Below, in pieces: positions 2,060 through 55,141 of a stretch of 64,000 bases of DNA. A program made the position numbers and the translations under genes. Position 1 is the stretch's first letter. The number at the start of each line of letters is the position of its first letter. The DNA is taken from positions 17,576 through 81,575 of the IMG/VR virus record IMGVR_UViG_3300035104_000006, one strand, 5' to 3'. The notes under the pieces are model-generated. The model worked only from the letters and a program-made list of their open reading frames with translations. It did not search any database and had not been told where the DNA came from. Source of the DNA: a virus.

Positions 2060-2681
2060 AGAATTGGAAAATAGTAGTAAATGGGAGTCTGAAAACTCTC
2101 GTTTGAAGTATGTACTAGGAAATAATCATAAAAAAGTACGCATAAAAAATAGAGAGGAGTTACTACTGACCCCAGGGGTTTCCTATACTGCAGATAATAG
2201 AATAATTGGACCAGGTAATATTATATTCTTCAATACTATGGCAGAATTTGCAGGGATGGAATTCAGAATAGGAGACCTTCCAAAAGGATATCCTTGGAAA
2301 AGTTGGATGTATGAAGAAGTACGAGGGTGTACTAAAGAGGAGAGGCTTGTAACAGAGGAAGATCCTAACGGAATTAACCAACATGACCCAGGCGCAAAGC
2401 TGGACAAAGGTAAAAACAGGGTAGCTTTAGTACTAAGTGGATTTTCTAACGCTATTGAAGAAGTAACCAAAGTAGGAACATATGGGGCTGAAAAGTACTC
2501 ACCTAATGGATGGAAGAAGGTAGAAAATGGGCTAGAGCGCTATGATGATGCTATGTTTAGGCATTGGTTAGCTGAAAAACAAGGAAAAGACTTCGACCCT
2601 GACTCTGGTCTATTACACGCAGCGCACACAGCTTGGAATGCTTTAGCGTATCTTGAACTTACTTTACGGGAGAGAAGATGA
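2028..2681 (+). CDS. dATP/dGTP diphosphohydrolase-domain protein (DUF5664) with N-terminal extension; probable start 2046
   Basis: GAKLDKGK...VGTYGAEKYSPNGW...RH...DSGLLHAAHTAWNALA motifs. Confidence 0.8.
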   Translation: MLGVRSMSDYKELENSSKWESENSRLKYVLGNNHKKVRIKNREELLLTPGVSYTADNRIIGPGNIIFFNTMAEFAGMEFRIGDLPKGYPWKSWMYEEVRGCTKEERLVTEEDPNGINQHDPGAKLDKGKNRVALVLSGFSNAIEEVTKVGTYGAEKYSPNGWKKVENGLERYDDAMFRHWLAEKQGKDFDPDSGLLHAAHTAWNALAYLELTLRERR

Positions 2682-2893
2682 ATATAGTAGCTGAAGTTAA
2701 AGATTATATTATTGAGTTTGCTGAAAGAAAAGGGCATCAACCTAAACATATCATTCTGGGTAGGGATGAAAAAGCCAGACTTAGAAACCTCCCTAACTTA
2801 ATGCTAGTAGAAGCTCCAGAAGAGTGGCCGGACAAACTATTTACTCTTCAGATATTTTATTCTAGTGATAACAGCTGTCTAAAGGTGGGATAA
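2678..2893 (+). CDS. hypothetical protein
   Basis: ATGA overlap with upstream gene. Confidence 0.55.
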   Translation: MNIVAEVKDYIIEFAERKGHQPKHIILGRDEKARLRNLPNLMLVEAPEEWPDKLFTLQIFYSSDNSCLKVG

Positions 2894-3057
2894 TGCCTAT
2901 TTATGAGTATAGGTGCAAAAGCTGTGGTAAAGAATACACCATAATAAAGAATATATTAGAGTATAAAGACTCGGTAAGTTGTGACTGCGGCAACTGGGCT
3001 GGAAAGATACCCTCTATACCTGGGTACAGGAGAGATCATACACGGCTTGAGAGGTGA
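2893..3057 (+). CDS. FmdB-family zinc-ribbon protein (54 aa, not in ORF track)
   Basis: Hand translation MPIYEYRCKSCG...CDCG. Confidence 0.75.
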   Translation: MPIYEYRCKSCGKEYTIIKNILEYKDSVSCDCGNWAGKIPSIPGYRRDHTRLER

Positions 3058-3357
3058 TTGATGCCTATTGACTACGAATTTTTCTATGATATAATAAAAG
3101 GGATAAAATATACGGTCGACTTTATAGAAGACTCCAAAGTACTGCTTGGGGAAGGTGGAAAGCTGCAAAAAATACTAAAGCATAGAATTGAGGCTGAAAC
3201 CGATATGCTAGGAATTTTATGCAAAGATAATAATGACTTAATAAGTTACTTCATTAATACTTTAGATTTTGGGCGTTCACAAGCTCCTCAGGGAGATATT
3301 GAAATATTGACTATTGGTAAACTTTTTGACCTTTTAGATGATAACTACGTGGAGTAA
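3058..3357 (+). CDS. hypothetical protein
   Basis: GAGG RBS, ORF track. Confidence 0.55.
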   Translation: MMPIDYEFFYDIIKGIKYTVDFIEDSKVLLGEGGKLQKILKHRIEAETDMLGILCKDNNDLISYFINTLDFGRSQAPQGDIEILTIGKLFDLLDDNYVE

Positions 3358-3359
3358 AG

Positions 3360-4076
3360 ATGAATATAGAGTTAGTAAGTTTTACACATGAACCAATTAA
3401 AACCTGTGCAAAAGCAGCTTATAACTGTACCAATATTGGAGCAATGCCTGAAGATGTAGACGCCTACGGATTAGTAGAAAGAGTACTAGCACTAGGGCAC
3501 GAAAGTATTGCTGAGTTTGCTGATTTTGTATTTAAGGTGGACGGTCTAAGTAGGGTAGCTAGTCACCAGCTAGTTCGACATAGGGTAGCTAGTTATGCTC
3601 AGCAAAGCCAAAGATATAATACATACGAACATCTAAATATAGTTATTCCAAATGAGTTAAATGAAGAGCAGGCAGAAAAACTTAAACAAGCTGCTTCTTT
3701 TTGCCACCAAGTATACCTAGAACTGGTAAATGAAGGAGTATCTGGGGAATCCGCGAGATATATCCTACCTAATTCGGCTGTATCTAGTATATTTGTAAAG
3801 ATGAATGCTAGAGAGCTGAGGCATTTCTTTAGAATGAGATTGTGCCTAACTACCCAAGCAGAAATTCGCAGTATGGCTCAGGCAATGTATGAAGTACTAA
3901 GAACTAATTTTCCAGCTCTTTTTGTAGGCCAATTTCCTCCTTGCGGTACAAAAGGAGAATGTAAAAAATGTCCGGGGGTGAATAAAAATGACAATACAGC
4001 AAAAGTTAGGTTTGAGAAATCTGAGCAAGCCAAACCAAATAATGAAGTCCAAAAAGACTTATTCGAGGAAGTTTAA
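3360..4076 (+). CDS. thyX: FAD-dependent thymidylate synthase
   Basis: GHES, SHQLVRHRVASYAQQSQRY, ARYILP, NARELRHFF motifs. Confidence 0.95.
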   Translation: MNIELVSFTHEPIKTCAKAAYNCTNIGAMPEDVDAYGLVERVLALGHESIAEFADFVFKVDGLSRVASHQLVRHRVASYAQQSQRYNTYEHLNIVIPNELNEEQAEKLKQAASFCHQVYLELVNEGVSGESARYILPNSAVSSIFVKMNARELRHFFRMRLCLTTQAEIRSMAQAMYEVLRTNFPALFVGQFPPCGTKGECKKCPGVNKNDNTAKVRFEKSEQAKPNNEVQKDLFEEV

Positions 4077-10620: not shown

Positions 10621-10925
10621 TGGATGGTACAATAGAAGATAATGAAATCTTTTATCGTATTCTAAATGAAGATGAAAATGGGTTCAACCAGCTACGGTTA
10701 GTAGTTAATAGACTTAGAGGAATCGAATATTTACATCTTAGAGAATACTATCTTGATTTCGATGGAGAATGGTGCCCAAGCCCTAGAGGACTAGCCACAC
10801 CACTAGACTTAAATACAGTATCTGAACTACTGACAGGGCTTGCAGAGATAATTTCGCTAGCAGAATCTAGAGAAATTATCAAAGAGTACTTTGGAGATAT
10901 TATTAATAATATCTACGAACAGTGA
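10620..10925 (+). CDS. PC4/p15-like ssDNA-binding transcriptional coactivator
   Basis: LVVN..RG.EYLHLREYYLDFDGEW.P...G; precedes ligase in T5. Confidence 0.75.
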   Translation: MDGTIEDNEIFYRILNEDENGFNQLRLVVNRLRGIEYLHLREYYLDFDGEWCPSPRGLATPLDLNTVSELLTGLAEIISLAESREIIKEYFGDIINNIYEQ

Positions 10926-11870
<945 letters not shown>

Positions 11871-11888
11871 ACCTATTAAAAATTATAC

Positions 11889-11917
11889 TTGACTTTTTCC
11901 TCGAATATTAGTATAAT
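11889..11917 (+). promoter_or_regulatory. sigma70 promoter between ligase halves
   Basis: TTGACT-17-TATAAT. Confidence 0.75.
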
Positions 11918-11926
11918 ATAAAAATA

Positions 11927-12700
11927 ATGAAAGTTGAGGCTATGAAGGAAATTATTCCACCTACAAATTGCCCAGAATGTAGCAGCAATCTACTATGGGT
12001 CAATGACCAGTTATACTGTAAAAATTCGAGCTGTCCAGCTAGAACATTGAAAGCTCTACAGCATTTTACTAAAACTGCGAAGATAAAGGGGTTAGGAGAG
12101 GCTTCTCTTCTAAAACTGGAAATTAATAGCATAGTGGAGCTTTATCAACTTTCAAAGCAAGACTTTATTGATGCTTTAGGTGAGAAAAATGGTATTAAGT
12201 GTTATAATGAGTTGGAGAAATCGAAAAAACTTCCCCTCAACATGCTTTTACCAGCTTTCAATATTCCTTTAATTGGTAATACCGCTTCTAGTAAAATCTG
12301 TTCTAAAGTTTCACATATCGATGAAATAACAGAAAGCTCTCTTAAAGACGCAGGAATCGGACCGAAAGCATCAGCAAATTTGTTAAACTGGCTTAATAAA
12401 GTATATAAGCCAATGTATGAGAATATTCTACCGTTTGATTTTAAGTCATCCAACGTCGTAGAGACTAACACTGAGGACTCCAAAGGTACAGTTTGCATAA
12501 CAGGAAAGCTTAAGACTTTCAAAACCAAAGCGGAAGCAGAGCAAGCTCTACATAATAACGGATACTCCACAGTTCCTAGGATGACGAAAGCAGTAGATAT
12601 TCTAGTCAATGAGAGCGGAATTGAATCCGCAAAAACCGAGAAAGCCAGAGAATCTGGCGTAACTATTGTTACAAACCTTAACCAACTTTTAGGAGACTGA
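11927..12700 (+). CDS. NAD-dependent DNA ligase, subunit B (Zn finger, HhH, BRCT)
   Basis: PTNCPEC...YCKNSSC, IKGLG, IPLIG, VCITG BRCT; T5 split-ligase arrangement. Confidence 0.88.
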   Translation: MKVEAMKEIIPPTNCPECSSNLLWVNDQLYCKNSSCPARTLKALQHFTKTAKIKGLGEASLLKLEINSIVELYQLSKQDFIDALGEKNGIKCYNELEKSKKLPLNMLLPAFNIPLIGNTASSKICSKVSHIDEITESSLKDAGIGPKASANLLNWLNKVYKPMYENILPFDFKSSNVVETNTEDSKGTVCITGKLKTFKTKAEAEQALHNNGYSTVPRMTKAVDILVNESGIESAKTEKARESGVTIVTNLNQLLGD

Positions 12701-36452: not shown

Positions 36453-37601
36453 TCAGATTACAAAAGCGGGGCGAAACCCGACATTGCTGTACCGAAGCGA
36501 CCGATCGTAAAGCAAGTTGAGAAAGAACACCCCGGCATACGTGCTGTGGTTCCAGTAGCCGCCGCGGATCGGGAGACGCTCCCCCACGTTGCGCACAAAT
36601 ATCTTGTCGCCTCCCAGCCCGGTACCTACGGGATACATGCCCAGCGCGATCATGAGGGCAGGCACTGAAACGCCTGTTTCGGCGGACAAGCTCTCAAAGT
36701 ACGTAATTGAGTATTCAGATCCCGTGGATTGTGAAGTCAGGGTGGTATTTAAGATCGGCGATCCTGCGCCATTTGTCCCGGTAGCGTCATATTTCAGGGT
36801 GTCGGTTGTTCCTGGCGCAACCAGAGACCCATCCTGCAAAATCGCTTTCCATTCGCTGCTGGTCGCGCTCTGGTCTTTCGTGTGGTCGGCAGCATTGTTG
36901 TCGGCAAGAATCTGAATCTCGCCGTCGTTTATCCGCATACCCCCTTGCCACTCCCACACATTACCGTGCATGTCGTGCACGCCGTGCATAGTGTGGTCGT
37001 GCGCCCATGTGGCAGGGCCGGTGCCGGTGGCGGTATGCGCTGTGCCGCTATCGCCGAGAATCGCAGCGGGATTAGTAAGCCTCCCCGTTTCGTGCTTATA
37101 GTCGATATCGCGCCCGTAGTTGTTGTTGCCATGCGGCATGGTGCCGTTCTTCCACGCCCATAATGCCAGCGCAGACCATTCAGTATTCGTGGACATATGC
37201 CAGCCATTACCTTTTGCGGCGCACGCAGCCAAAGCCTCATCGAAGTTTATAGCATTGGCAGGATCGGCGTTGGGTACAGATACGTAGTTACTCCCCTTCA
37301 CACTTGCAAGATATTGCCCGTAATAGATAGCGTCTTTTTCTACCCCGTTTACTACGAACGCGGGGTGAACGCCCGTGCCAAGCGAAGCATCAATATCCTC
37401 AAGACGGAATTTCGGTATACGCACCATACAATTAGCGTCACCGAAATCATCGTAAATTATGGGGTTTCTACGCATATCTTCCATCGAATCTATGTATTTT
37501 TTATTGTAGTAATTCTTCTTATCCTCCGTAGCCATCGTACCCAGCATACCATTAGTCGGTACATGCTCAGGCTTGCGGCCTACCTTAACTACACTGCTCA
37601 T
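36453..37601 (-). CDS. FGE-sulfatase/C-type-lectin-fold receptor-binding protein with DGR-type variable region
   Basis: WHMSTNTEWSAL, DMHGNVWEW, RGGYWN...AGVF.LN....RS....NVGFRPAF. Confidence 0.85.
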   Translation of the reverse strand: MSSVVKVGRKPEHVPTNGMLGTMATEDKKNYYNKKYIDSMEDMRRNPIIYDDFGDANCMVRIPKFRLEDIDASLGTGVHPAFVVNGVEKDAIYYGQYLASVKGSNYVSVPNADPANAINFDEALAACAAKGNGWHMSTNTEWSALALWAWKNGTMPHGNNNYGRDIDYKHETGRLTNPAAILGDSGTAHTATGTGPATWAHDHTMHGVHDMHGNVWEWQGGMRINDGEIQILADNNAADHTKDQSATSSEWKAILQDGSLVAPGTTDTLKYDATGTNGAGSPILNTTLTSQSTGSEYSITYFESLSAETGVSVPALMIALGMYPVGTGLGGDKIFVRNVGERLPIRGGYWNHSTYAGVFFLNLLYDRSLRYSNVGFRPAFVI

Positions 37602-38021
37602 TTACGCACCTCCAATCACGCCAAAGCGTTGCGGGGGAGTTACTTGTATTTGGTTGCCTTCTCCGTCATCTATCATGTAGGGAGCGGTTGAGTAGACGGA
37701 TTCGTACTTGTCGTTAAGGGCGGTGTCGTTGAAGATAGTGGAGTAAAGAGTATCTGCTGTACCCTTGCCTGTGAACGGTGCTTCCGCTAATACCTCTACA
37801 CCTTCCATGCCACGCCATTGAGTTGCTTCTTCGTCAGTTAATCTAAGATAAGCCAACATGGAGTTACCATTGATTGCTGCTGGTGTGCGGGCAATTCCAG
37901 TAACTACGGGAGGCTGGGCAATGGTACCGTCCTCGTTCTTCTTTAGTAGGTCAGGGTAGTTTGTAGCTAAGTAATCTACAAAAGTTGGGAAGTCCTGTAT
38001 GTATATAATTGCGTCAATCAT
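37602..38021 (-). CDS. hypothetical tail-associated protein
   Basis: Tightly packed in operon. Confidence 0.6.
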   Translation of the reverse strand: MIDAIIYIQDFPTFVDYLATNYPDLLKKNEDGTIAQPPVVTGIARTPAAINGNSMLAYLRLTDEEATQWRGMEGVEVLAEAPFTGKGTADTLYSTIFNDTALNDKYESVYSTAPYMIDDGEGNQIQVTPPQRFGVIGGA

Positions 38022-40796
38022 TTATTCCTCCGTGGTTAGGGCGATTAGGTTGTTATCAGTAAGTGCTTTTGGGTAGTAGGATAGGTGTCGGATGTGGCCG
38101 TTGAGTTGGTTACTTCCCATCCTATTACCAATTTCTAAAGCTGTTAATCCTTGAGGTATTCCAGTAGGGATATCGGTCTGCAAATCTCCAACATTTCCCA
38201 TGACACTAAATAAATCATTTGTAACCTTAAAGGCAATATTCCTCACCTGTCCTGCTGTTCCACTAGTTGATGTTATATACACATCGCAAGCATTATTATA
38301 TTCAGAGTTTAGGTATCTTTTATACCCTCCACGAAGTTGTAACAAGATTGCGCTAGTTAAAACATTATAGTCACTCAGAACTACAAGATTTTGATAATTA
38401 TCAGAATCAAAACTTGATGCCTCAACAACAACCGTCCCCTCATTCTGATTATAAAAATCACTGAAGTCAGTGCCACCAATATAAGCAACATCCGCTGCAC
38501 GAGTCGTAGCCGTTGAGGTGCTGATGTCTGCTGCACGGGTTACTGGTGCTGAGGTTGTTGGGATGTAGGATGATAAATAACCTTCTGTTAAGTTTGCTCC
38601 CCAGATATACAGAGACTCCCCATTAGCAGCGGTTATAGACCCCACAGCAACTACGGCGGTAAAATCTAATAAATCATAGGTTATGGTAGCTTCTGTAGTA
38701 AATGTAACCCAACATCTATACCACCCATTACCGACATAAAACATGCCAGCATCGTCTTGTGTATCCGTATCGAATGTGAAATTTCCTGTAAGGCAGTCAA
38801 ATGTACCGCCATCATTTGAGGCTGAATCTTGAAAGGTTCTTATTCTTAAAAACTCAATAGATCCCTTTTTAGCAAATATACTGGCAGTGTATCTAGTATT
38901 TACGCTTTTAACTGTATTAGCTCTTAAGTAAACACCTGATGGGGCAACTATGTTTAATAAGTCAGCAGTTTTAGTCCCATCAGGTGCAGTTAGTACATCT
39001 GCATCTATTGTGACTCCACCTTTACCCCAAGCCGCATTATCAAACTCTTCCGAGTAAGTAAGTAGGTTAGTAGCAGCCGTATGCTCCAACAACAACGTAG
39101 CAGGAGCAGTTAAATCAGCGAGGTTATACGTATAACGTGCCTCATCAACTGCTGCTGTTTGCATTACACCATCAGCGTCAAAGTAAGTTGCTGTAGAAGC
39201 ACGAGAGGTGAAGGATATGTCCGAAGGTATATAGGGTGAAGGGGAGGAGCCTTCTTCTAGTTGGGCTCCCCAGATGTAGATGCCGGAGGTGCCGTCGCCT
39301 GTGTAAGTTAGATTGTCACTTGCAGAGTTTATTAATTGAACTCTTGCTCTATGATCTGTACATGCTGCTGTAGTTGTATAAGTAACCCAACATCTACGCC
39401 AACCATCAAGGAGTATGTCCATCCCTGCGTTTGTTATAAGTACATTAGTTGTTGCTAGTGGCCCAACATTTAAATCAAATTTGATAATAGATGTTGAACT
39501 AATCTCCCCAATATGTACAGGTCGGATTACCACATAATCACCAGAGTTACCCTTCTTAACGTATAACGACTTGGTAAATGTTCCCTCAGTTTGTGTCAGT
39601 ATCTGCTCCATATAATGTTCTGCATTGTCAGTATTATCAACCAGCTTATCTGCTGTCAACGTCCCATCTGGAGCAACTGCTGTGTTTGGTTCTATAGTTG
39701 AATTAGTCCTCCCCCAAACCCCATTCCCAAAGTCCTCACTATAAGTAAGTAAATTAGTCCTGCTCTCCCAGATACTAAGCCCTTTACACTCGCCTGTCAC
39801 AGGGTCGTGGTCGATAGTGGGTTCGTCTACATCTGCGTAACAGAGCCTACATTTGTGGTCGTAGTAAGACTTATTAGATGCACGACTAAAGGTGATACGT
39901 GGGTCTATCTCTTTGCTGTAGAAGTCGAGTAAAAGAGATGGGCGGATGCTAGGGTATTCGAGCATCCCGTACATAGCCAACCAATCACTAGATGATGTTG
40001 TGGGTTCACTAGTTGTTACGTCGGTTAGGTTATTTAATAAAGTCCACATTATACCGTTATGATAGACGGATGCTGGGATTGAGAGAGAGCCTGTTAGGTT
40101 ACTCCAGATACCTGCGTAGTTAGCAGAAGAAGCTGCTGCCTGTTCTGATTGGCTTGCGGAAGTAGCAGATGATGCAGCTTCGTCTGCTGAAGTTGAGGCG
40201 GAAGAAGCTGAGGAAGCAGCATTTTGGCTATAGCCTAGGGCGTCAGCTTCGTAGGAGGCTGCGTTGGATGCAGATGCAGATGCGGCGGACGCACTTGCCG
40301 CCGCGTTGTCTGCATAAGTAGAGGACGCAGCAGCACTAGTTGCAGATTTATTCGCAAAGTGGAGGGAGGAATAGTCATCTACTCCGTCACCTTCAGGGAC
40401 TAGTTGGTCTTCAGGATAGTTAGCCCAGTTTTCAGCCTCCGTCGCTGAAGCAGCAGCAGGTGTTTGGTAATCATAGGCTTCTATCTTAACCCAAATTGAG
40501 CCATCGAATACGAGCCAGTTGCCGACTTCCCAATCGCTAGTTCCATCTAAGGTTGTTGTACCGGCGGTGGAAACTAGGTAATAATGTCCTGTTGCGCCGG
40601 AAGAAGAGGATAGAGTTGGGGTGTTAGTGGAGGCGTCCCAGGAGCCGGCGAAAGTTAATTGGCCGATTTGATTCTCAGTATTAACCTTACTGACAACTAA
40701 ATCACGAAGATCTTGTGCAGTTATACCTCCGATATTATTATCGGCAAATAATGACAATAATTGAGCATCTGTTCTTTGTGTATTTGCCATTATCAA
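38022..40796 (-). CDS. tail fibre/spike protein (924 aa) with two TNLLTYSE carbohydrate-binding-like repeats
   Basis: WDASTNTPTL motif, Ala/Ser heptad stretch, duplicated TNLLTYSE.F...W...APDGT.TAD domains. Confidence 0.8.
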   Translation of the reverse strand: MIMANTQRTDAQLLSLFADNNIGGITAQDLRDLVVSKVNTENQIGQLTFAGSWDASTNTPTLSSSSGATGHYYLVSTAGTTTLDGTSDWEVGNWLVFDGSIWVKIEAYDYQTPAAASATEAENWANYPEDQLVPEGDGVDDYSSLHFANKSATSAAASSTYADNAAASASAASASASNAASYEADALGYSQNAASSASSASTSADEAASSATSASQSEQAAASSANYAGIWSNLTGSLSIPASVYHNGIMWTLLNNLTDVTTSEPTTSSSDWLAMYGMLEYPSIRPSLLLDFYSKEIDPRITFSRASNKSYYDHKCRLCYADVDEPTIDHDPVTGECKGLSIWESRTNLLTYSEDFGNGVWGRTNSTIEPNTAVAPDGTLTADKLVDNTDNAEHYMEQILTQTEGTFTKSLYVKKGNSGDYVVIRPVHIGEISSTSIIKFDLNVGPLATTNVLITNAGMDILLDGWRRCWVTYTTTAACTDHRARVQLINSASDNLTYTGDGTSGIYIWGAQLEEGSSPSPYIPSDISFTSRASTATYFDADGVMQTAAVDEARYTYNLADLTAPATLLLEHTAATNLLTYSEEFDNAAWGKGGVTIDADVLTAPDGTKTADLLNIVAPSGVYLRANTVKSVNTRYTASIFAKKGSIEFLRIRTFQDSASNDGGTFDCLTGNFTFDTDTQDDAGMFYVGNGWYRCWVTFTTEATITYDLLDFTAVVAVGSITAANGESLYIWGANLTEGYLSSYIPTTSAPVTRAADISTSTATTRAADVAYIGGTDFSDFYNQNEGTVVVEASSFDSDNYQNLVVLSDYNVLTSAILLQLRGGYKRYLNSEYNNACDVYITSTSGTAGQVRNIAFKVTNDLFSVMGNVGDLQTDIPTGIPQGLTALEIGNRMGSNQLNGHIRHLSYYPKALTDNNLIALTTEE

Positions 40797-41077
40797 TTAT
40801 TCCTTTCAAGTATTCGGTCTATTGTTTTTTCCACATTTGCAACTCGTGATTTACAAACTTCTTGATCGGCTGTTATTTTTATTAATGTTGTGTTGAGATT
40901 TATTCCTATTGTTATGGCTGTGGTGGTTAAGATGATTATCGCACCACCTAGTATTCTCATAAACCAAAGATTTGCCTTATGTCTAGTTTCAAGAGTGTTT
41001 AGCCTGATTAGAACATCAGTGTGCTGAACTCCGCAAAACTGATCGTAACTGTTTTCACTATTATTCATAGACGACAA
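40793..41077 (-). CDS. single-TM holin/XhlA-like membrane protein
   Basis: C...H...RL..LE, one TM segment, RVANVEK tail. Confidence 0.5.
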   Translation of the reverse strand: MSSMNNSENSYDQFCGVQHTDVLIRLNTLETRHKANLWFMRILGGAIIILTTTAITIGINLNTTLIKITADQEVCKSRVANVEKTIDRILERNN

Positions 41078-41676
41078 CCTCCGTCTGATTGATCATCTTC
41101 GAGATCAGACGCGTCAGTTATTATTTTCGGCTGTTTTCTTGTTTCAGATATAGATTCTGAATGGATTTCTTTTGTATTAGAGCCGGAGCTTAACCAATCA
41201 CCGAAGTTTAAGTTTATATTCGCTCCTGCATTTGGCTGGCTTTTTTGTTCTACGATTCCGGCATGGCTAAGGACGAAATGGCTTTCCTTCAAATCACCGC
41301 CTTCTACTGCATTTACTACATTGGTAGCCGCAGTGAGCACGGACTCATTAAGCAAGTTCTTCGCCTGTTCTGCCATTGATAGTTGTGAATCTTCAATTCT
41401 CTGCATGACTCTTGGGTCGCGAGATACGATTGTTATAAGCTGGCTGGACAGTCCGAGTTGTCTGGCTATGTCAATTTTCTTATATCCCACAGCTAGCATA
41501 TCGGCTATAGTCTTATTTCTTTTCGACAACGGCTGATTAGGATCAGAAATATATGTATGACCGAATTTAGTCTTAGCTATTCCACTTTCAGATACTTCAT
41601 ACTCTTCTCCGTAGAAATCTTTGCACAAGGCTTTTCTTGCCTCGCTTGTCGCTTCTGCTGATTCTGATCTTGCCAT
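41065..41676 (-). CDS. terminase small subunit-like HTH protein
   Basis: GYKKIDIARQLGLS HTH, AVEGGDLKESHFVL, INLNF tail; first gene of leftward operon. Confidence 0.5.
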   Translation of the reverse strand: MARSESAEATSEARKALCKDFYGEEYEVSESGIAKTKFGHTYISDPNQPLSKRNKTIADMLAVGYKKIDIARQLGLSSQLITIVSRDPRVMQRIEDSQLSMAEQAKNLLNESVLTAATNVVNAVEGGDLKESHFVLSHAGIVEQKSQPNAGANINLNFGDWLSSGSNTKEIHSESISETRKQPKIITDASDLEDDQSDGGCRL

Positions 41677-41808: not shown

Positions 41809-42026
41809 TTGACGGAATAAGTAAATAAATAAATAAGTAAGCGTGGCATAAAGGAGGTGTGGAAAATTTATAAAAATTGAAAAAGAGAGATTTACTAATT
41901 TGATTATATGTATTTTTAAATATATAAATATTCATATATAATAATTGATTATTTAAACAGTAAATTTCTTTTCCTTTTTCTTTCTCAACCTATCTTACCC
42001 CTACGCTTATTTACTTATTTATTAAC
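41809..42026. repeat. imperfect palindrome 1 with (AAAT)n/(ATTT)n arms
   Basis: AATAAGTAAATAAATAAATAAGTAAGCGTGG ... CTACGCTTATTTACTTATTTATT; purine-rich left arm, pyrimidine-rich right arm. Confidence 0.8.
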
Positions 42027-42230
42027 TTAATATGCCAATCTCTCTGAAATAATTAAATAAGTAAATAAATAAGTGTTTGGGCTATAGATTAACGGAAAAT
42101 TTTCAGAAATATTATGTAATCCTGACTAAAAAGGTAGGGTATTTAAAAATTGCTTGGGGAATTACATGGTGTCAGAACCCCACCCGCTAATCTCCGCTTA
42201 ACTTTTTTGGGACCCAATGCCGATGTCGAA

Positions 42231-42250
42231 CATGTTTCACGTGAAACATG
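42231..42250. promoter_or_regulatory. perfect parS site (TGTTTCACGTGAAACA) in a 20-bp palindrome
   Basis: Exact match to the chromosomal ParB/Spo0J consensus. Confidence 0.85.
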
Positions 42251-42380: not shown

Positions 42381-42409
42381 TTGACAGGGATGAAGATAGT
42401 TGATAGATT
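42381..42409 (+). promoter_or_regulatory. sigma70 promoter
   Basis: TTGACA-17-TAGATT. Confidence 0.7.
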
Positions 42410-42460: not shown

Positions 42461-42973
42461 ATGGAAACTAAAACAATTACAGCGGTACGGCATGAAAAGG
42501 GAACAAAGGTTGTTAAGTACTCCACAAGTATTACTGGAGTACCGACAATAGGTTGTCTGGTCGATTGGATAATGGAGAAGGGGGTGCACGAACAAGTATT
42601 GTCTGCCTTGATACGCCAGGCTGAGCAAGTGGCGTTGGGTAGGTGCGCCAGCGCGGATAGTGCAGGACAGGAATTGCCAGAAGAACAGGATTTTTATCAA
42701 TTAATTACTGGCACGGGAACTGGGCGATTCTCATACAAAAAAGCAGCGGAACAGCTGCAAGCTAAAGTCGATGAGCTGCAAATAGAATATAACAAGCTTA
42801 CGCAGCTAGCAATGGCAGCACTAGCCAGTGGAGACACTGAGACTGCTACAATACATGGGAATACTGCGAACAATATTATGCAGAATATCCAGGCAAAGCA
42901 GGAAAAAATTGGAGAACATCTGGCCGCTCATGCTGAGCAGCAAGAAAAGCGGAAGGCAGCTAAACGGGACTAA
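42461..42973 (+). CDS. isolated hypothetical protein with C-terminal coiled coil
   Basis: Own promoter, GGGAG RBS and terminator. Confidence 0.75.
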   Translation: METKTITAVRHEKGTKVVKYSTSITGVPTIGCLVDWIMEKGVHEQVLSALIRQAEQVALGRCASADSAGQELPEEQDFYQLITGTGTGRFSYKKAAEQLQAKVDELQIEYNKLTQLAMAALASGDTETATIHGNTANNIMQNIQAKQEKIGEHLAAHAEQQEKRKAAKRD

Positions 42974-42983
42974 TTCGCTTTCT

Positions 42984-43025
42984 AAGGGGCGTACATGTCG
43001 GATTCGATATGTACGTCCTTTTTTA
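42984..43025 (+). terminator. intrinsic terminator
   Basis: GGGCGTACATGTCG-gatt-CGATATGTACGTCC followed by T run. Confidence 0.8.
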
Positions 43026-43585: not shown

Positions 43586-43951
43586 GGCGTTTTTCAATCA
43601 TAGAGCCGTTTAGGGGCAATTAAGCGTTAAATAAATAAATAAATAAATAAATGCCCGGGTAAGGTGGATTTAAAAAGAAAGAAAAATTTATATTAAAACT
43701 GAAATAATAAAAAAACTGAAAAAAATAATAAAAAAAAGAAAGAAAAAATTAGAATTAAAATTGGATTAAAAAAAAATTAATAAAAAGAATAAAGAATTAA
43801 AATATATAAATATATATATATATAAAAATCAATATAAATAAATTCCTTAATCTAATTTTTTCTCTTTTTCTTTCTTTTTTCCTGCTTCTTACCCTACCGC
43901 TTATTTATTTATTTATTTATTTATTTATTGACCGCCAGGATTGAAAATGCC
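43586..43951. repeat. imperfect palindrome 2 (~365 bp) with (AAAT)n arms and (TA)n centre
   Basis: GGCGTTTTTCAATC...(AAAT)n..GGGTAAG...TATATATATATA...CTTACCC..(ATTT)n...GATTGAAAATGCC. Confidence 0.85.
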
Positions 43952-54909: not shown

Positions 54910-55141
54910 GCTACGGGACCTGATACCAAACGGAGACGGCTACAACAGCGAGTACGCAAACACGCTGGCAGAAGCCGCCGAATATATCGAGCGACTGGAA
55001 GATCGGCTGTTTGCCGCTGGCGCGATGGAGCAAGCGCCGTGTTTCTGCTGCGGGTACAACGGGCCTGGGTACTACCAGCCGGGCTCCCATCCGTGCGCGA
55101 AACGGCACCACGAACTGCGGCACGGCGTGAGCGAAATCTAA
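54881..55141 (+). CDS. cassette 4 gene b: phage hypothetical (CFCCGYNGPGYYQP..HPCA)
   Basis: GGAGG RBS; stop in ATCTAAC. Confidence 0.7.
   Translation: MSNQYDNKTKLRDLIPNGDGYNSEYANTLAEAAEYIERLEDRLFAAGAMEQAPCFCCGYNGPGYYQPGSHPCAKRHHELRHGVSEI

Follow-up and report, generated by a model that had tools for sequence, protein, structure and literature searches.

A consensus chromosomal-type parS site in the early control region of a phage genome that lacks ParB

Self-contained ParABS cassettes, with parA and parB on the same replicon, are found in P1, N15 and the partition-proficient mycobacteriophages, and in chromosomal ParABS systems ParB-CTP clamps form at parS and SMC is loaded. The phage described here, phage B, has no such cassette. 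ParB recognizes the sequence TGTTNCACGTGAAACA on the vast majority of bacterial chromosomes, the exceptions being Enterobacteriaceae and Pasteurellaceae, and one parS together with Par proteins stabilizes otherwise unstable plasmids (PMC7022226). In Pseudomonas aeruginosa, ParB represses promoters beside the intergenic sites parS3 and parS4 (PMC5521831; PMC7022226). Two described elements make use of the Par proteins of another replicon. The orphan parS sites of SGI1 hijack the ParABS system of IncC plasmids (PMC10954446), and the virulent phage phi29, which has no ParB, carries five parS sites (PMC2731898), uses Spo0J to bring its genome into the prespore and has promoters silenced through Spo0A boxes (Meijer et al. 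2005, reviewed in PMC2731898). Our scan of the phi29 genome recovered four parS sites at one mismatch and one at three mismatches, versus 0.17 expected.

The borrowing of host ParB is thus already known in kind from phi29 and is not a new idea. Phage B is likewise a virulent-type phage with no ParB gene and with the host chromosomal parS motif, and with its closed 59-kb genome, host-type parS and lack of both ParB and lysogeny genes it agrees with phi29 in these features. The two phages differ in several respects. Phi29 is a 19-kb podovirus of Bacillus, whereas phage B, a siphovirus of 59 kb, has lambda-type tail-tip genes, was found in oil-field samples and probably infects a diderm host. The five sites of phi29 are imperfect and spread along its genome, whereas phage B has one perfect site, fixed 132 nt upstream of its first early promoter. 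The host of phi29 sporulates and Spo0A boxes lie at phi29 promoters; in phage B, these boxes are not enriched.

The other systems offer partial parallels. By analogy, phage B resembles SGI1 as a mobile element with a cis site only that would rely on the ParA and ParB of another replicon, although SGI1 is an integrative mobilizable element that copies a plasmid-specific parS and phage B copies the chromosomal consensus. With chromosomal ParABS it shares the identical 16-bp sequence, of which a single copy suffices for ParB loading, but its replicon is a virus with neither parAB nor a cluster of sites. An intergenic parS upstream of a promoter is common to phage B and P. aeruginosa; the latter case concerns a chromosome with many sites and repression of the cell's own genes, whereas for phage B we infer regulation only from a conserved spacing. 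Neither for siphoviruses nor for subsurface phages did we find a published consensus chromosomal parS. Two aspects of the locus are noteworthy: the conserved promoter spacing, and a deep-subsurface setting in which neither lysogeny genes nor a link to sporulation is seen.

The parS site and the genome that carries it

The stretch of DNA analyzed (the window) is 64 kb long and spans bases 17576–81575 of the 114,484-bp IMG/VR contig IMGVR_UViG_3300035104_000006; coordinates below are those of the window unless the contig is named. The same DNA was found in oil-field, shale-gas and subsurface metagenomes, and the listed holders of the phage DNA include no RNA datasets. Two complete complements of phage replication genes are present in the contig. 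Its left arm encodes a DnaB-like helicase, an intron-split PolA, a class II RNR, PhoH and SbcC, and its right arm has its own PolA, primase-helicase, RNR, PhoH and ligase, as well as structural genes for terminase, portal, protease, major head protein and the lambda-type tail-tip proteins L and J. The contig holds a 290-bp repeat in two copies of 97% identity, one at contig positions 55085–55374 (window 37510–37799) and one formed by its last 290 bases. Over the last 31.8 kb of the contig, an independent 33-kb contig (G003) matches at 99.98% identity, and it passes from a tail-fibre gene directly into this shared segment. Logan contigs from runs X1 and X6 join window position 37510 to 30 bases on its left that are the same as those preceding the terminal copy of the repeat, and a Logan contig from run X4 has the same 30-base junction with one base different. 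The repeat, the independent contig and the Logan junctions together indicate that the right arm, or phage B, is a circularly closed siphovirus genome of ~59.1 kb that holds the parS site. The left arm was most likely joined to phage B during assembly, through a tail-fibre segment common to both.

The tail-fibre module (37510–40430) is GC-richer than its surroundings and has 90–96% DNA identity to segments of viral contigs whose overall GC content is 30%, 40% and 53%; among these contigs is a complete genome of 57 kb that has terminal repeats. The depth of the module in run X4 is ~250x versus 4–9x in the adjacent parS region. It looks like a host-recognition cassette that moves among unrelated phages of one habitat. 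The four contigs sharing it (G001–G004) contain neither parS nor a homologous intergenic region. The two arms also have in common several short segments of 150–320 bp that are 82–99% identical (contig 2.8–8 kb versus 67.5–83 kb, the latter at about 50000–65500 of the window), probably small mobile genes or cassettes swapped between co-occurring phages.

The parS site lies in a 780-bp intergenic region of phage B, within a 20-bp perfect palindrome, CATGTTTCACGTGAAACATG (42231–42250, no strand assigned). The central 16 bp, TGTTTCACGTGAAACA (42233–42248, likewise unstranded), match the chromosomal consensus at 16/16 positions and are flanked by two palindromic bases on each side. A preliminary description of this DNA had reported a perfect palindrome with the exact parS consensus in non-coding DNA between divergent operons, and both statements are borne out: a minus-strand late operon lies to the left and a plus-strand early operon to the right, and all open reading frames overlapping the site are 37 aa or shorter, so that it is non-coding. 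When the 64-kb window was shuffled 100 times with dinucleotides preserved, no exact parS match arose, and base composition predicts 2.2e-5 exact sites in a genome of 59 kb. The core is the sole perfect 16-bp palindrome of phage B. No second parS was found at up to three mismatches across the 64-kb window or at up to one mismatch across the whole 114,484-bp contig.

A CRP/NtcA-type site (TGT-N10-ACA) was also considered for the palindrome and set aside, as its half-sites are poor and the match to parS is perfect. The heptamer TGTCGAA, the Spo0A-box consensus, abuts the palindrome on the plus strand (42224–42230) and recalls the pairing of parS with Spo0A boxes in phi29. The window contains six copies of this heptamer versus 5.7 expected, and the copy beside parS is missing in the closest related lineage; its position is probably due to chance.

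The site is an orphan. A six-frame search of all 114 kb found no ParB_N, HTH_ParB or tyrosine integrase domain, and the sole ParA-type match was a below-cut-off AAA_31 hit (E = 0.022) in an open frame of 311 aa. The absence of parA and parB, first noted for the window, therefore extends to the entire contig in six frames and, since phage B is circularly closed, to its complete genome. We also scanned 64 phage B ORFs against Pfam, namely 62 early and middle plus-strand genes and the two minus-strand genes left of parS. The scan returned families of nucleotide metabolism, methylase, recombination and nuclease genes, and no partition, repressor or integration family; most of the early ORFs have no known family.

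The control region and its relatives

The intergenic region separates two genes that are the first of their operons. The minus-strand operon begins with a gene for a 203-aa protein (41065–41676), which has a GerE/LuxR-type helix-turn-helix just above the Pfam cut-off and is followed by the tail and structural genes. The plus-strand early operon begins with a 170-aa gene of no known family (42461–42973) and is preceded by a sigma-70-type promoter on the same strand (42381–42409) that consists of TTGACA, a 17-nt spacer and TAGATT, with a TG before the -10 element. Downstream of the 170-aa gene is a plus-strand terminator-like hairpin (42984–43021) of 17 pairs and a T run. The predicted model of the 170-aa protein (mean pLDDT 76) has a β-hairpin, followed by helices and a long helical hairpin at the end. 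A Foldseek search with this model gave no match below E = 0.4 and no DNA-binding fold. PDB sequence searches with the 203-aa protein and the 170-aa family gave no match, nor did PHROGs for the genes flanking parS.

Two large AT-rich inverted repeats, neither assigned a strand, bracket parS and the 170-aa gene. The first, with (TAAA)n-type arms (41809–42081), lies 150 bp left of parS, and the second, with (TAAA)n arms, is at 43614–43935. DnaA boxes are not enriched near these palindromes, which could be an origin or packaging element. The conserved repeats are followed by a gene-free stretch of about 1.1 kb downstream of the 170-aa gene.

Relatives were identified through searches for homologous proteins and representative sequences and then for the contigs that encode them. 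Relatives of the 170-aa protein are few, and their contigs gave three further lineages. Megablast and tblastn searches of cultured phages with the parS region and the 170-aa gene gave no match, and a related-locus search of viral and metagenome contigs with the 170-aa and 203-aa proteins or an alignment also gave none; for one distant homologue (P0005), no encoding DNA was recovered. The lineages have a common layout, which consists of a 203-aa-like gene on the minus strand, a (TAAA)n-type repeat, a promoter and a 170-aa-like gene on the plus strand. The closest lineage, type 2, is represented by four contigs from four samples that are identical over the aligned intergenic region; its 170-aa protein is 88% identical to that of phage B, and the exact 16-mer occupies the same place. 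The other two have no parS at up to three mismatches. In one (L125/L126, from JGI and Logan contigs), the 170-aa protein is 39% identical; in the other (L249, an ENA contig), it is distant, and a lone four-mismatch parS match lies inside a gene ~2 kb off. The preliminary description had proposed conservation in related phages as a check, and the outcome is divided: the 16-mer is invariant in type 2 amid diverged flanks and absent from the two more distant relatives. Judged from these loci, the control region is conserved and parS was added to it in part of the group only.

In type 2, the early promoter and the 170-aa gene are separated by an additional 81-aa gene of no known family (L121, 1496–1741), whose counterpart in the window is the segment 42410–42460. 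A gene of the same size is present in the parS-less contig L126, which suggests that the phage of the window has probably lost it.

The layout bears on whether the palindrome might instead be an operator through which an unrecognized phage DNA-binding protein acts on the early promoter, with its identity to parS due to coincidence or convergence. Control regions of this kind usually have palindromic operators, the site lies at a conserved distance upstream of the early promoter, and the many early ORFs of no known family leave room for such a protein. We nevertheless regard this as quite improbable. A coincidental 16/16 match to parS has a likelihood of about 2e-5, and the genome contains no ParB-like fold or family. 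The site is single, with no half-sites or second operators, whereas repressor systems have repeated operators and a co-occurring adjacent regulator. No such regulator accompanies parS: the 203-aa gene stays beside the intergenic region in relatives, and both it and the 170-aa gene persist where parS is missing. The 170-aa gene is therefore not a parS-specific partner, and the failure of its model to match a DNA-binding fold also speaks against an operator.

An alignment of the window with type 2 reveals how sharply conservation is confined to the core. Identity is 95% far to the left of parS and falls to 88% at -100 to -51, 83% at -50 to -21 and 40% (8/20), with a 9-nt indel, at -20 to -1. The core is identical at 16/16 positions. 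To its right, identity is 50% (10/20) at +1 to +20, 53% (16/30) at +21 to +50 and 62% at +51 to +100. In type 2, the bases flanking the 16-mer are G and A, and the outer two bases on each side of the 20-bp palindrome are lost; the conserved unit is therefore the 16-mer and not the 20-mer. In each lineage, exactly 132 nt separate the end of parS from the -35 hexamer, and the ungapped comparison of this spacer gives 45/132 identical positions versus 35 ± 5 in shuffles. Within the parS-bearing clade, the core and the promoter spacing thus look constrained across the two lineages compared.

The same alignment can be read differently, with parS as a neutral relic of host or plasmid DNA that was acquired by recombination and has stayed intact through a recent lineage split or an adjacent breakpoint. 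The site is missing from the more distant relatives, and the high identity of the left flank further out fits such a history, as does the pronounced mosaicism of this phage group, in which phages of 30–53% GC have segments that are more than 90% identical. In addition, a local rearrangement is indicated by the 9-mer AATGCCGAT, which is found to the left of parS in the window and at the right edge of parS in type 2. A relic is unlikely, in our judgment: the bases adjacent to the core have diverged on both sides and gained an indel, yet the core is unchanged, and the promoter spacing is exact despite the turnover of its sequence. If the site had been placed twice, this would itself argue for selection.

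The large repeats raise a further possibility, that the palindrome forms a cruciform or hairpin which, together with its large neighbors, serves replication, packaging or RNA processing. Indeed, parS lies between two large inverted repeats conserved family-wide, the (TAAA)n-type repeat being kept in position across all four lineages (L125, 1284–1532; L249, about 2150–2180). This conservation includes the parS-less lineages, so that the repeats are retained without the site. The predicted RNA fold around parS is no more stable than that of shuffles (z = +0.8), and the hairpin is not followed by a T run. A structural role would tolerate compensatory changes and has no need of a parS sequence, and the outer part of the 20-mer stem is not conserved. 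Taken together, these points make a structural role very improbable.

A possible role for host ParB

We lean, on balance, towards parS being a functional loading site for host ParB that serves genome positioning and inheritance or control of the early promoter. The perfect site, the lack of a ParB of its own and a core unchanged amid diverged flanks suggest that the phage probably borrows the ParB of its host. Loading of host ParB is the most likely use of the site, given that most bacterial lineages have a ParB that reads this consensus, that one site is enough and that promoter repression by ParB is known. The preliminary description had suggested that the phage may use host ParABS and SMC to position or segregate its DNA, silence nearby promoters or titrate ParB. 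Its premises, namely a perfect chromosomal-type parS, a control region between divergent operons and the orphan state of the site, stand; conservation has supported it in one lineage and not in the two others.

A mechanism of this kind would begin with selection that keeps a host-type parS in a phage without ParB. After DNA entry, ParB-CTP clamps of the host would load at the single parS and spread across the neighboring early promoter and palindromic AT-rich elements, giving the phage genome the mark of an origin-proximal part of a chromosome. Two pay-offs can be envisaged, possibly together. Host ParA and ParB, and SMC, could position the non-integrated genome and pass it on during delayed lytic growth, and ParB could modulate the first early promoter at its fixed distance. 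ParB binding and spreading, and every downstream effect including SMC recruitment, are presented here as predictions from the sequence.

Several points weigh against host ParB loading. Its conservation is drawn from two lineages only, and because the left flank is 95% identical further out, a recombination breakpoint near parS could account for part of the signal. Two distant relatives of the same layout lack parS, so the site would be dispensable for the phage family. Phage B has one site versus the five of phi29, and it carries no lysogeny or plasmid-maintenance genes that would point to an episomal phase.

The host should have a ParB that reads the consensus, and an orphan parS could accordingly serve as a host-range clue. 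The lambda-type tail-tip genes, together with tail-protein relatives mainly in phages of Gram-negative hosts, suggest that the host of phage B is probably a diderm. A host search of genome contigs with the major capsid protein and RNR as queries gave no match, and Atlas look-ups returned viral taxa only.

If host ParB does load, 16 bases would plug a phage without lysogeny or partition genes into the segregation and condensin-loading system of its host. Persistence in slow-growing deep-subsurface hosts would then come at very little cost, and the phi29 paradigm of spore entrapment would be extended beyond Bacillus. The fixed promoter distance is a hint that the onset of infection could be gated by ParB.

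Orphan parS in other viral contigs

The exact 16-mer is present in more than 119 IMG/VR contigs and the 20-mer in 27, none of the latter related to phage B. Among five large contigs with a single site, a ParB_N match was above the cut-off in one, weak in two and missing in two. A search of 105 parS-bearing IMG/VR loci for ParB box II matched none, the search having used a crude regular expression without a positive control. The occurrence of these sites suggests that orphan host-type parS is recurrent in viral contigs, where it could also mark cryptic carrier states in viromes.

A broader reading, which we put forward as speculative and hold to be doubtful, is that phages widely use an orphan consensus parS to borrow host ParB, independently of sporulation. 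The parS of phage B, at its set distance from the first early promoter, would then act as a host-state sensor or centromere, at which ParB would hold the genome silent and heritable in slow-growing cells, a carrier state that needs no lysogeny genes, and release it upon a change in ParB or CTP status. The same logic may apply to complete IMG/VR genomes of ~64 kb with three to four consensus parS sites and no clear ParB domain.

Two such genomes were found. One (L007, IMGVR_UViG_3300044541_000019) carries four copies of the 20-mer at 2380–3980 and has no ParB_N match, and the other (L014, IMGVR_UViG_3300044446_000019) carries three copies at 10731–12673 and has a sub-threshold ParB_N match only. 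Both are ~64 kb in length, have a GC content of 59–63% and are 100% complete by CheckV, with their parS copies gathered within about 2 kb, making them candidates for phages or phage-plasmids dependent on host ParB.
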